This document shows positions 37,401 to 40,400 of a stretch of DNA of 64,000 nucleotides, in pieces. Source of the DNA: Terriglobia bacterium (GTDB taxonomy: Bacteria; Acidobacteriota; Terriglobia; Acidiferrales; UBA7541); the NCBI GenBank assembly GCA_963695545.1, contig OY968796.1:2304001-2368000 (forward strand), read 5' to 3'. Within the stretch, counting starts at the first letter, position 1. The number at the start of each line of letters is the position of its first letter. The position numbers are program-made.

Positions 37401-40400
37401 GCACCGGCGGGCGCAACGCGCACGGCGAAATCACCATGTGGCATCGTGGTGGCGGACACAAGCAGCAGTATCGCAACATCGATTTTCGCCGCGACAAAAA
37501 GGGAATTCCCGCGCGCGTGGCTTCGATCGAATATGACCCGAACCGTTCGGCGCGCCTCGCCCTGCTGCACTACGCCGATGGCGAGAAGCGCTACATTTTG
37601 CATCCTGTGGGTCTTGAAGTCGGCATGACGGTTTCGACTGGCGAAGGCGCCGACATTCTGCCCGGCAACGCGATGCCGATTCGGTTCATTCCGCCCGGCA
37701 CGCAGGTTCACAATCTTGAGCTTTATCCCGGCAAGGGCGCGCAAGTCGTGCGCTCCGCCGGCGGCTCGGCGCAATTGCTCTCGAAAGAAGGCGACATCGC
37801 GCTTGTGAAGTTGCCGTCGGGTGAAATCAGAAAATTTCGCCTGGATTGCATGGCCACCATCGGCCAGGTCGGCAATCTCGATCATGAGAACGTCACTTAC
37901 GGTAAAGCCGGCCGCACGCGCTGGCATGGCGTCCGGCCAACCGTGCGCGGCGTGGCCATGAACCCGGTGGATCATCCGCACGGCGGCGGTGAAGGTCGCG
38001 TGAAAGGAAATCATCCGGTCACGCCGTGGGCGTTTCCGACCTTGGGCGCGAAGACGCGCCGCAGTAAGCGCGCCGATCGCGTGATTGTGCAGCGCCGCAA
38101 ACCATAGCGGCCTCAAAAAAATTTGAGGAATCACCCGGAAGGTTAGTTGACGAGCGAGGCGAAAAAGGAAGGCATTATGAGCGCAAACAGAAACAGAACT
38201 CGGCGGGCAGTGGCACGGCACATCGCGCGCGGAGCCAAGCGCGCTCGCCCCGCGGCGAGCGCAAAGGCCGCGCCGAAGCATGTCGTTCCCGCGCCGCCGC
38301 AGGTGGTGCTCTACCGGCTGTGCAAGGCAGGTTGGGCCGTCACGGTGGAGCGCGCGCCAAGCGCGCAAGGCACGCGTTTTGTCTGCCCGTTTTGCCCGGT
38401 CTCGCATCGCGTGCCCGGACCCGTGCGCGGTTTTCGCAAGATGCGCCGCGCGCAGTGGGTGAAGTTGCGTCACGTCGAAAGTTAATTTTAAGGAACCAGG
38501 ATGCCACGCTCACTGAAAAAGGGCCCGTTCATCGACGACCATCTGCGCGTCAAGGTGGAAGCGTTGAACGTGCGCAACGAAAAGAAAGTGATCAAGACGT
38601 GGTCGCGCCGCTCGACGATTTTGCCCGAAATGATCGGCCACACCATCGCCGTGCATAACGGCAGAAAATTTATTCCGGTGTACGTCACCGAGCAAATGGT
38701 CGGCCACCGTCTCGGCGAATTTGCGCCGACGCGTACGTTCAAAGGCCACGCGGTAAAAGTCGCGCTTGAACGCGCCGCGTCGCTGGCAGGCGCGCCCGGC
38801 GGCGCTGCGCCCGGTGCGGCGCCGGCCGGTGGTGCATCCGCGCCTCCTTCGGCGCCCAAGGCATAGACCATGGCGATCGAAACATCTACGGTACACAGTT
38901 CGGCTGCGGCCACGGCCACAGCTCCGGTGATCGAAGCGCGGGCCATGGCCAAGCACGTGCGCATGTCTCCGCAGAAAGTGCGCTTGGTTATCGATTTGAT
39001 TCGCGGCGAACGCGCTGAAAGCGCCTTGCAGATTTTGAAGTTCACACAAAAGCGCGCCTCGCGCGATGTTGAAAAAGTGCTGCGCAGCGCGATTGCCAAT
39101 GCCGAGCGTAAGGCCGAAGACGCCGGCGCGACGCTTGACGTCGATCAATTATTCGTCTCGCAGTGTTTTGTGAATGAAGGTTCGCGCTGGAAGCGGCTGC
39201 GCCCCGCGCCGATGGGCCGCGCGTTCCGCTATCAGCGGCGCACAAGTCACATCGTCGTCGGCGTGGCCGAGCACCATCTGGCCGCGCGCGATCGCGCCGT
39301 CGAAGCTGCGGCCGAAGCGGAATCGCACAAGGGCGTGCGCGGCGCGGTTAAGAAAGCGCGTCAAGCGCTGGTGGGCAAGAAAAAACCCGCGCGTCCGTCG
39401 AAGAAAGTGAAGTAGGAGGAAACTTTGGGTCAGAAGACACATCCCTACGGATTTCGGCTGGGCTACAACAAGGCTTGGAAGTCGCGCTGGTACGCCGATC
39501 GCGATTACGCCAACTTGTTGCACGAAGACGTCGTGCTGCGCCGCCAATTGAAAGATCGCCTGAAAGCCGCGGGAATCAGCTCGATTGAAATCGAGCGCGC
39601 CGCCAACAAATTGTTGATCCGGCTCTACACCGCGCGGCCCGGCATCATCATCGGCCGCAAAGGCTCGGAAATTGAAAAGCTGAAGACCGAAGTTCAAAAA
39701 CGCACCAAGCGCGAAGTGCACATGGACATTCTTGAAGTTCACCGGCCGGAACTCGATGCGCAGCTCGTGGCCGAATCGATCGCGTTGCAACTTGAAAAGC
39801 GCGTGGCCTTTCGCCGCGCGATGCGCAAGGCCGTTGATTCTGCGCTGCGCTTCGGATGCAAGGGAATCAAAGTTCGTGTCGCGGGGCGCCTGAATGGCGC
39901 CGAGATCGCGCGCAAGGAATGGTATCTGCAAGGCCGCTTGCCGCTGCAAACGCTGCGCGCCGACATCGACTACGGTCTCGCTGAGGCGCACACGTCATAC
40001 GGCGTGATCGGCGTGAAATGCTGGATCTATCAGGGCGAAAGCATTCCGCAGCGTGGAAATAGCGCCGGCAGCAAGGGCAAAGAAACCGTCGCCGCGGATT
40101 GATTCGGCGAACCGAACTTATTAAAGATTCTTAAGGACCACGACGATGTTGATGCCCAAGAAAGTGAAGTATCGCAAACAGCAGCGCGGTCGCCGCGCCG
40201 GCAAAGCCTGGCGCGGAGGCACGCTCGCGTTCGGCGAGTACGGCTTGAAAGCCATGGAGCCGGCTTGGATCACCGACCGCCAAATCGAAGCGGCGCGCGT
40301 GGCCATCACGCGTTTCATCAAGCGCGGCGGAAAACTTTGGATTCGCATTTTCCCGGACAAGCCTTTCACCAAGAAGCCCGCGGAAACCCGCATGGGCAAA

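Follow-up and report, generated by a model that had tools for sequence, protein, structure and literature searches.

The S10 part of the 64-kb stretch of DNA analysed here (the window) consists of ribosomal-protein genes with one exception, a small open reading frame (ORF) between rplB and rpsS that belongs to no named family, and the question it raises is whether one acidobacterial family, UBA7541, has added a protein to its ribosome or has placed a gene of some other function inside its ribosomal operon.

Position, distribution and expression of the ORF

The first-pass annotation had placed the ORF between the genes for L2 and S19, and the coordinates bear this out. On the + strand, rplB (uL2; 37286..38107; Pfam Ribosomal_L2_N, E = 8e-36, and Ribosomal_L2_C, E = 2.2e-54) ends at 38107 and is followed by a 69-nt spacer (38108..38176, +), the 102-aa ORF (38177..38485, +) and rpsS (uS19; 38501..38866, +; Pfam Ribosomal_S19, E = 3.3e-38), which starts at 38501; L4 and L22 are also among the neighbours identified by Pfam. 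A Shine-Dalgarno-like AAGGAAGG can be read 4 nt 5' of the ORF ATG (38165..38172, +), with GAGAG at the matching position in relatives, whilst the stop codon and a 15-nt spacer containing the S19 ribosome-binding site TAAGGAA occupy 38483..38500 (+). No promoter-like or terminator-like site was found on the + strand of the L2-S19 interval. In 27 of 34 loci no more than 23 nt separate the ORF stop from the start of S19, and this proximity suggests roughly equimolar synthesis with the ribosomal proteins. Contigs from peat RNA libraries span both junctions at ~90% identity (one record bridges L2 and the ORF, three bridge the ORF and S19), a sign of co-expression that is subject to the presence of some DNA in RNA libraries. 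The ORF is a genuine gene that is expressed, encoded in the operon and co-expressed with ribosomal-protein genes; its transcript would be that of the S10 operon, and its translation would start from a Shine-Dalgarno site of its own.

The gene is family-wide in UBA7541, as had been claimed, with matches in 79 of 79 high-quality genomes, 94 of 101 genomes overall and 27 of 29 genera; this count includes the unpublished genomes G009, G022 and G034, without which the high-quality figure is 76/76. A sample of the order, which includes the unpublished G009, G034, G126 and G138, gave the ORF in 132 of 134 family genomes and in none of 16 sister-family genomes, and a sample of the phylum contained no convincing match in 399 genomes from outside the family, so the restriction claimed for the gene also stands. 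Two marginal phylum matches were rejected: G382 (E = 3e-3), whose sequence was read and is unrelated, and G546 (E = 4.8e-4; 35 residues inside a 1524-aa frame), judged from the match table only. Nine family genomes gave no match to the ORF. Five of these were searched for S19 and none has it, from which we conclude that these assemblies lack the region; no loss of the ORF was seen in any assembly that contains it. The order L23-L2-ORF-S19-L22 is kept in all 34 family loci inspected, whereas L2 abuts S19 in 5/5 loci of sister families, where both the spacer and the ORF are absent. Our reading is that the ORF was born at the base of this family, or reached it then from elsewhere, and was inserted between rplB and rpsS.

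Beyond this family the ORF has no recognisable relatives in the databases searched. Pfam and NCBIfam each returned no match at E ≤ 10, and a profile search of PDB sequences likewise gave none at E ≤ 10. The number of relatives reported earlier was reproduced, with 1379 of 1387 candidates at E ≤ 0.001; among the 120 relatives listed none carries a Pfam domain, and all those with a name are called 'hypothetical protein'. A profile search against 1.84 billion representative proteins recovered no relatives outside the tight family, PHROGs returned no match (only noise at E 0.1-0.5), and a tblastn search against phages gave no match. In the ESM Atlas the ORF product falls with its own unnamed acidobacterial clusters at 0.90, followed by zinc-ribbon DUFs at 0.80-0.86, which are leads only. 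The paper library searched contained neither a ribosome structure from an acidobacterium nor any reference to the ORF.

Composition, conservation and predicted structure

None of the 14 neighbouring ribosomal proteins for which these values were computed is as basic as the ORF product (11.4 kDa, pI 12.0, net charge +21, 23% K+R), which divides into two parts. Codons 1-41 (38177..38299, +) encode a variable, Arg/Lys/Ala/Pro-rich N-terminal tail with 11 K+R and no D+E, predicted to be disordered from alignments, pLDDT and composition, in which the alignment shows partial conservation of the start (M-x-A-[ST]-R) and of R18/K21. Codons 42-102 (38300..38482, +) encode a near-invariant core that alignments and AF2 describe as beta-rich. 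The division into an invariant C-terminal part and a variable N-terminus had been recognised correctly: the N-terminal 41 residues vary, and all invariant columns (36 in an alignment of 41 sequences, 27 in one of 46) lie within residues 46-98. The motif C-x20-C-x2-C-x3-H is equally real, and its probable metal ligands C49 (38321-38323), C70 (38384-38386), C73 (38393-38395) and H77 (38405-38407; all +) are invariant in both alignments, including 46/46 sequences in the larger.

The ~60-aa core is under purifying selection and evolves at the rate of L2, L23 and S19. Its mean pairwise identity is 0.806 and its dN 0.138, against 0.823 and 0.136 for L2, 0.819 and 0.121 for L23, and 0.813 and 0.117 for S19; between close pairs its dN/dS is 0-0.21, a range equal to that of L2 and S19. 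The gene is kept in every high-quality family genome sampled, its constraint is comparable to that of ribosomal proteins, and in its own genome it occurs once, with no paralogue found. Codon usage is uninformative for the ORF because the bias is weak in the source genome (score -0.024 for the ORF, 0.013 +/- 0.018 for ribosomal proteins and -0.029 +/- 0.030 for the background).

The AF2 model had been described as poor, with a pLDDT of 54, and here that description has to be corrected: the mean pLDDT is 70.9, with block means of 81-92 over core residues 41-100 and values below 50 over residues 1-35 of the tail. The predicted core contains five strands (42-47, 53-59, 66-69, 76-79 and 83-88; pLDDT 81-92), and a core-only run returned the same strands, four of its five models scoring only 51-58. 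Fold searches with the full-length model (Foldseek on the PDB, VIA wide and VIA second look) and with the core alone (Foldseek and VIA wide) matched no solved fold, the best Z being 2.6 and the best Foldseek E 1.6, with nothing at E ≤ 0.001; among the weak matches are Pol III RPC10-type chains (E of about 3-4). The second knuckle, C70-P-F-C73, is classical, the turn of the first hairpin has only C49, and the candidate fourth ligand, H77, sits in the next strand. We infer that the core most likely binds one zinc ion through C49, C70, C73 and H77. The site would resemble a zinc ribbon in degenerate form, its first knuckle reduced to one Cys and its second, CPFC, followed by a His four residues further on.

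Candidate roles in and around the ribosome

The first-pass annotation had read the ORF product as a lineage-specific ribosomal or ribosome-assembly protein. Position, conservation and composition fit that reading; an accompanying change in rRNA or in the operon's ribosomal proteins, the absence of a known small ribosomal protein, or a link to any ribosomal protein by fold or sequence was looked for and not found. Our own hypothesis, put forward tentatively and as a hypothesis rather than a finding, is that it is an added, family-specific ribosomal protein; its only links to the ribosome are its operon position and its composition, both of which bear on the matter inferentially. The ~40-residue disordered, Arg/Lys-rich tail would thread into rRNA, as in other small ribosomal proteins, the ~60-residue all-beta core would probably carry one zinc, and the protein would bind rRNA and be built into the ribosome. 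A more specific version is somewhat less probable still: the protein would be a stoichiometric part of the ribosome, its small Cys3His beta fold would be of a kind not seen before, and it would have been acquired only at the base of the family without detectable remodelling of rRNA or of other ribosomal proteins. It might have been born de novo between L2 and S19 and be autoregulated through a leader hairpin.

Counting against a ribosomal protein is that the sister families lack the ORF although their ribosomal proteins and rRNA are very similar. Comparison of two family with two sister 23S sequences revealed no family-specific insertion of at least 4 nt. The family 23S genes are the shorter (2973 and 2974 nt, against 3090 and 3380 nt in the sister families), and the extra sister sequence sits in variable hairpins; as the two sister families have inserts that do not resemble each other, these are read, on two sequences against two, as independent gains in the sister families rather than a loss in UBA7541. 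The 16S comparison showed no family-specific indel above 2 nt. Among 20 operon ribosomal proteins compared between three family and up to five sister genomes, with a crude ORF picking that missed some proteins in some genomes, there was no family-specific indel above 3 aa, and the most fixed differences, in L3 (11/210) and RpoA (14/339), are too weak to name a partner. When L2, S19 (1-92) and the core (38-102) were modelled together with Zn, the complex scored 0.00 in both runs, with no verdict from the tool, and this counts neither for nor against contact. These small samples contain no lineage-specific rRNA or ribosomal-protein change that would mark a matching binding site, although such a change is not obligatory for ribosomal proteins.

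The lack of such a change would be easier to accept if the protein were not a built-in subunit but a non-structural factor associated with the ribosome, be it an assembly chaperone for a step close by (much as bL38 helps uL6 to be incorporated), a hibernation or silencing factor, or a transient or sub-stoichiometric modulator of translation. The same operon, composition and selection evidence would suit such a factor, and the ORF's own leader and hairpin, described below, would allow its level to be set apart from those of L2 and S19. Its place in the translationally coupled S10 run points instead to synthesis in step with the ribosomal proteins, and no similarity to known assembly or hibernation factor families was found. 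We regard an associated factor as unlikely.

The hairpin stands just upstream of the ORF Shine-Dalgarno site and is conserved in most genera. In 23 of 34 family loci it takes the form of a 5-bp stem with an invariant GCGCGG loop, 2-10 nt 5' of the Shine-Dalgarno-like GAGAG. The motif CCYGGCGCGGCGGG lies in different frames, or outside any frame, in different genomes, and is therefore conserved as nucleic acid and not as protein. RNAalifold predicts the same leader hairpin, and its closing pair covaries (AU 6, GU 6, UA 3, GC 2, UG 1, unpaired 5); this covariation amounts to a single pair, and shuffles reach the score in 3/500, which is not decisive for related sequences. Together, the 69-nt leader and its hairpin hint at separate regulation of the ORF, not simple coupling to L2. 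The spacer in the window also holds an A/T-rich inverted repeat, CCTCAAA-aaaa-TTTGAGG (38111-38128), whose fold is no better than that of shuffles (z -0.58). An Rfam search of window positions 33000-41000 gave no match at E ≤ 1 and no known ribosomal-protein leader RNA. The hairpin motif was also considered as the mark of a wider regulon and rejected: five family genomes contain 14 exact matches, three of them upstream of the ORF, and the other 11 each fall within a long open frame and show no regular placement ahead of a gene; they are therefore read as chance.

Such a leader could be the target of the ORF product itself, which would then be an RNA-binding regulator of the operon that binds the hairpin or another site on the mRNA and tunes its own synthesis and that of S19 onward. 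A hairpin present in most family loci, conserved as nucleic acid, covarying and recovered by RNAalifold is what this reading would draw on, but the source genome's own genus lacks the canonical hairpin and yet keeps the protein almost unchanged, and the covariation is confined to one pair, with some shuffles reaching the score. Autoregulation would in any case not exclude a ribosomal protein, because the known regulators of ribosomal-protein operons are, to our knowledge, ribosomal proteins themselves. We consider a dedicated operon regulator quite unlikely.

We think it similarly improbable that the protein is a general nucleic-acid binder (nucleoid-associated, RNA-polymerase-associated or an RNA chaperone) for which the operon serves as a platform for strong, growth-linked expression. 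Non-ribosomal genes do sit further downstream in the same cluster (secY, adk, map, infA and rpoA, encoding SecY, Adk, Map, IF1 and RpoA), and a basic tail rich in Lys, Ala and Pro is of a kind that would serve for binding DNA as well. The nearest named language-model clusters to the core, DUF7836, DUF7838 and the YmcF-like proteins (0.85-0.86), are small zinc beta-ribbon proteins comparable to it in length (56-62 aa) and are not ribosomal, none being linked to ribosomal operons in the search output; they are leads only, since values below 0.9 are chance by the tool's own calibration, and the core has no Pfam match to them at E ≤ 10. Against a general binder stand the insertion in the S10 part, between two coupled ribosomal genes, and a constraint on the core equal to that of ribosomal proteins.

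None of ten small ribosomal proteins searched for in the family and its sisters is missing: L36, L31, L32, L33, L28 and S21 are above the Pfam cut-off in 5/5 genomes (two family, three sister), L25, L34, L35 and S20 are present in 6/6 genomes, and a zinc-type S14 lies in the operon of one genome (G011). A relocated, diverged copy of bL31, bL32, bL33, bL36, bL28 or uS14 that replaces the canonical gene is accordingly very improbable and close to refuted, for although a basic N-terminus is followed by a Cys knuckle, and the CPFC-x3-H-R-V stretch presumably bears a loose resemblance to the bL32 type, there is no Pfam or NCBIfam match, the canonical genes are present elsewhere and the ORF has no paralogue.

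Comparison with known ribosomal additions

Read as an added ribosomal protein, the ORF product has several partial counterparts. It would share with bL32, bL33, bL36, bL31 and zinc-type uS14 a basic terminus joined to a small, beta-rich Cys/His site, and the metal site of bL36 consists of three Cys and one His; it differs from these zinc-ribbon ribosomal proteins in the order and spacing of its ligands (C-x20-C-x2-C-x3-H) and in giving no HMM match. A second group comprises bTHX of Thermus, a very small, very basic, lineage-specific ribosomal addition, together with bS22 and bL37, all of which the ORF product resembles in these three respects. Those proteins, at about 25-35 aa, are mere peptides and are not known to contain a folded metal domain; a further difference is that the ORF has no match at E ≤ 10 in NCBIfam, the NCBI naming source.

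In the published account, bS22 and bL37 are described as lineage-specific ribosomal additions of Actinobacteria. The precedent for a protein of this sort whose gene lies within a ribosomal-protein operon is bL38 of the Bacteroidia, encoded downstream of bL28 and bL33, which sequence families had not predicted to be ribosomal until the ribosome structure was obtained (PMC11851116). In Flavobacterium johnsoniae bL38 is, like the ORF product, small, lineage-restricted, ubiquitous in its lineage and encoded in a ribosomal operon, but as described there it is a class-level protein of 5.6 kDa that packs a beta hairpin against a helix and is known from cryo-EM and genetics (PMC11851116), whereas the protein described here has 11.4 kDa, a long basic tail and a predicted five-stranded Cys3His core, is confined to one family and is known from genes. 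We found no sequence or fold relation between the two.

Lineage-specific ribosomal proteins such as bL38, bS22 and bL37 have mostly been chance finds, made when the ribosomes of new phyla were solved; here a candidate comes from comparative genomics alone, in a lineage of soil and peat that is abundant and uncultured. If the protein is indeed ribosomal, bacterial ribosomes would still be gaining conserved subunits at the shallow depth of a family, and this one would be among the youngest known additions to the bacterial ribosome. It would bring a new small metal-binding fold into the ribosome, provide a clean marker gene for the family, and offer a case for how a new gene gets wired into the translationally coupled S10 operon. 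Should its role instead be that of a regulator, or of a protein that binds RNA or DNA in general, it would still represent a strongly constrained orphan family of unknown fold with more than 1000 database members.

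The gene and its relatives

The open reading frame (ORF; 38177-38485, + strand, 102 residues) lies between the L2 gene, which ends upstream at 38107, and the S19 gene, which starts downstream at 38501; by Pfam its neighbours are L2, S19, L4 and L22, and a Shine-Dalgarno-like AAGGAAGG ends 4 nt 5' of its ATG. The ESM Atlas record of the protein begins at residue 12, a GTG read as M (window 38177-38212); because the orthologues conserve the N-terminus M-x-A-[ST]-R, sequence comparison supports the ATG at 38177, not this GTG, as the start. None of the 14 neighbouring ribosomal proteins for which values were computed is as basic as the 11.4 kDa product (pI 12.0; K+R 23, D+E 2). 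The protein matched no Pfam or NCBIfam family at E ≤ 10, and a profile built from its relatives matched no PDB sequence at E ≤ 10; the first-pass annotation of a gene at this place belonging to no known family is confirmed and strengthened.

Of 1387 candidates from a word-indexed search, 1379 passed E ≤ 0.001. The best 120 are 86-171 aa long, carry no Pfam domain and are named solely 'hypothetical protein', several coming from 'Candidatus Acidiferrales' or Acidobacteriia MAGs. When the query was aligned with 40 of the 120 relatives listed, 36 columns were invariant in the 41 sequences, all within Y46-R98; with five more divergent sequences added (46 in all), 27 were invariant, including C49, C70, C73 and H77. 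Residues 1-41 vary in sequence and length and are constantly rich in Arg/Lys/Ala/Pro, so both alignments bear out the earlier division into a conserved C-terminal part (the core), with these four invariant residues, and a variable basic N-terminal tail. When 1.84 billion representative proteins were searched exhaustively with a HMMER profile, just 29 clusters reached E ≤ 0.001. All 29 were examined: the weaker ones are the ORF gene again, truncated or frameshifted, and four continue in frame into the S19 start. The protein family thus has no detectable distant relatives. No paralogue was found in the ORF's own genome, and tblastn found no phage match.

Distribution, constraint and transcription

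Searched with the ORF alignment as a profile, the sample of family UBA7541 gave matches in 94 of 101 genomes (27 of 29 genera) and in all 79 with at least 90% completeness and at most 5% contamination, whilst the order sample gave 132 of 134 family genomes and none in the sister families (0/1 and 0/15). Five genomes in these tallies, G009, G022, G034, G126 and G138, are unpublished; if they are left out, 76/76 high-quality family genomes and 128/130 family genomes in the order sample match, and none of their sequences enters the analysis. Across 401 high-quality genomes of the phylum, the profile matched two family genomes and gave two marginal hits, one rejected as unrelated on inspection of the match, the other spanning 35 residues inside a 1524-aa frame and not counted as a relative. 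S19 was sought in five of the nine family genomes lacking an ORF match and was absent from all five; their lack of a match therefore reflects an operon missing from the assembly, not loss of the gene. Gene order, determined by tblastn of L23, L2, the ORF, S19 and L22, is identical in 34/34 family loci, and the ORF is absent from 5/5 sister-family loci, where the L2 stop lies 23 nt 5' of the S19 start in one and L2 overlaps the S19 start in another. It follows that the ORF, together with its leader, is a family-specific insertion, and the confinement to UBA7541 at a fixed L2-S19 position, as first proposed, stands (79/79 high-quality genomes, 34/34 loci, sister families 0/16). One family locus, L042 (G031:C53:9034-13351, in a 52%-complete genome), has ORF matches in three overlapping frames, with L2, S19 and L22 matches just partial or about 50% identical, and looks like a poorly assembled stretch, not a decayed gene.

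The window was compared with 33 loci, L042 being left out as a 52%-complete, frameshifted assembly. Over its last 60 codons the ORF core has a mean pairwise identity of 0.806 and a dN of 0.138, against 0.823 and 0.136 for L2, 0.819 and 0.121 for L23, 0.813 and 0.117 for S19 and 0.718 and 0.221 for L22. Synonymous differences in the core reach a proportion of about 0.58, and its dN/dS in the 14 closest pairs is 0-0.21, a range equal to that of L2 and S19. The ORF is a real gene, under constraint as tight as that of its ribosomal neighbours.

Neither a sigma-70-like promoter nor a + strand terminator-like site was found between L2 and S19, and Rfam returned no family at E ≤ 1. Metatranscriptomes of peat or permafrost (ten runs, ten studies) contain parts of the stretch at shares of 0.05-0.12; four of the runs were aligned to the window: one contig spans the L2 3' end to the ORF start (37900-38199, 32 differences) and three span the ORF core to S19 (38331-38625, 38348-38703 and 38387-38539). 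These contigs all derive from relatives that are about 90% identical, and they fit co-transcription of L2, the ORF and S19, bearing in mind that RNA libraries can contain DNA and that contigs give no expression levels. As the ORF stop lies at most 23 nt 5' of the S19 start in 27/34 loci, and the S19 ribosome-binding site falls in or directly past the last ORF codons, the arrangement would allow translational coupling of the two genes.

Elsewhere in the cluster, frameshifts seem to interrupt several spc/alpha genes (42431-49272) of this single-contig assembly: S14 continues into S8 in a single frame of 195 aa (42431-43018), the S5, L15 and SecY regions are broken up (44132-46649) and the L36/S13/S11 region consists of odd frames (48434-49272). 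In the relative G011 all these genes are intact, and the frameshifts are probably assembly errors; the earlier remark that neighbouring ribosomal-protein genes are frameshifted and the ORF whole agrees with this. Several ribosomal proteins carry long low-complexity extensions: L4 (36116-36964) is lengthened at its C-terminus by about 80 Lys/Ala-rich residues, S19 (38501-38866) has an Ala/Pro-rich tail past its Pfam domain (residues 3-83 of 121), with similar tails in sister families, and L22 (38870-39415) extra residues at both ends (domain 25-132 of 181). L24 (41492-41842), of similar length in a sister-family genome, has two Cys knuckles, CPSC...CRRC, at its end and seems to have a C-terminal zinc-ribbon-like extension.

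Leader hairpin and predicted fold

The motif CCYGGCGCGGCGGG occurs in the ORF leader of 23/34 loci, covering most genera but not that of the window, where the hairpin is degenerate; its 3' end lies 2-10 nt 5' of an SD-like GAGAG. Its frame differs between genomes and in others it is non-coding, which argues for conservation as nucleic acid. It folds as a hairpin whose stem has 5 bp and whose GCGCGG loop is invariant; RNAalifold predicts it too, and the closing pair covaries (AU 6, GU 6, UA 3, GC 2, UG 1, unpaired 5). The 23 loci, L007:1775-1859 on the - strand among them, are in alignment A3. Many gene calls begin at an ATG in or 5' of the hairpin, giving 110-114-aa database entries that start 'M-x-PARR'. 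Exact motif copies elsewhere in five family genomes all lie in long open frames, with no consistent place 5' of a gene. With a hairpin so close to its ribosome-binding site, the ORF seems to have its translation set separately, possibly through autogenous control by its own protein.

The AlphaFold2 model, called poor at pLDDT 54 in the first-pass annotation, fared better with the 46-row alignment: mean pLDDT was 70.9, with residues 1-35 below 50 and ten-residue blocks over residues 41-100 averaging 81-92. It has strands at 42-47, 53-59, 66-69, 76-79 and 83-88, then a short helix at 91-94; a core-only run gave the same five strands (best model mean pLDDT 80.0, the other four just 51-58). C49 is predicted in the turn past strand 1, C70-P-F-C73 in the turn that links strand 3 to strand 4, and H77 within strand 4, from which we infer a putative metal site laid out as a zinc ribbon whose first knuckle is reduced to one Cys. 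A language model likens the core to small zinc beta-ribbon families (0.85-0.86), matches rated by the tool as leads only. With the full-length and core-only models, Foldseek gave no hits at E ≤ 0.001 and VIA-align against 48,161 chains a best Z of 2.6, with nothing at Z ≥ 2 on a second look; as modelled, the protein appears to resemble no solved structure. It is a new protein family without a matched fold.

A proposed ribosomal role and its alternatives

Substitution for a lost ribosomal protein is all but ruled out: L36, L31, L32, L33, L28 and S21 score above the Pfam cut-off in 5/5 genomes (two family, three sister), L25, L34, L35 and S20 are present in 6/6, and L30 and a zinc-type S14 lie within the operon. 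No family-only 23S insertion of at least 4 nt was found (two family vs two sister sequences) and no family-specific 16S indel above 2 nt (2 vs 2 sequences or fewer). The family 23S is 2973 and 2974 nt long, that of the sister families 3090 and 3380 nt, the extra sequence lying in variable hairpins with inserts mutually unlike between the two families. Measured against the own-genome reference L046 (G000:C1:1240048-1243020), the sister genes L045 (G101) and L047 (G103) exceed the family length by 117 and 407 nt, their inserts falling in three variable hairpins (own-genome 23S positions about 289, 588-610 and 1224-1246) and looking like intervening-sequence-type insertions. The own genome has single 16S (G000:C1:1600784-1602321, -) and 23S (1240048-1243020, +) matches, separated by about 360 kb and opposite in strand, and its rRNA genes are therefore unlinked. 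Comparison of 20 operon ribosomal proteins, SecY, Adk, Map and RpoA between three family and up to five sister genomes found no family-specific indel above 3 aa in the ribosomal proteins, and codon usage did not separate ribosomal-like from average genes in the own genome.

The case for a link to the ribosome thus continues to depend on where the gene lies in the operon, on its composition, on its ubiquity and on how fast it evolves. Of the lineage-specific ribosomal protein first proposed, the gene, its position and its family restriction stand, and the ribosomal role is plausible and unproven. We tentatively favour a built-in ribosomal protein, which the product may be. A ribosome-associated factor, on which the same link bears, is rather unlikely; a regulator of the operon, to which the leader hairpin is relevant, is improbable, and some other nucleic-acid binder is doubtful to the same degree.

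For a built-in ribosomal protein, the closest precedent would be bL38 of Bacteroidia, which is described as a 5.6 kDa protein ubiquitous in the class, found by cryo-EM, encoded 3' of bL28 and bL33 in one operon and required for uL6 incorporation (PMC11851116). Further lineage-specific ribosome additions are bS22 and bL37 of Actinobacteria. The ORF protein shares with all three the logic of a lineage-specific addition, but differs in sequence, size and fold and is confined to a single family. Listings and abstracts on the family, the S10 operon, lineage-specific ribosomal proteins and acidobacterial ribosomes yielded no description of it. If it is indeed a built-in ribosomal protein, it would join the lineage-specific ribosomal proteins of bacteria.
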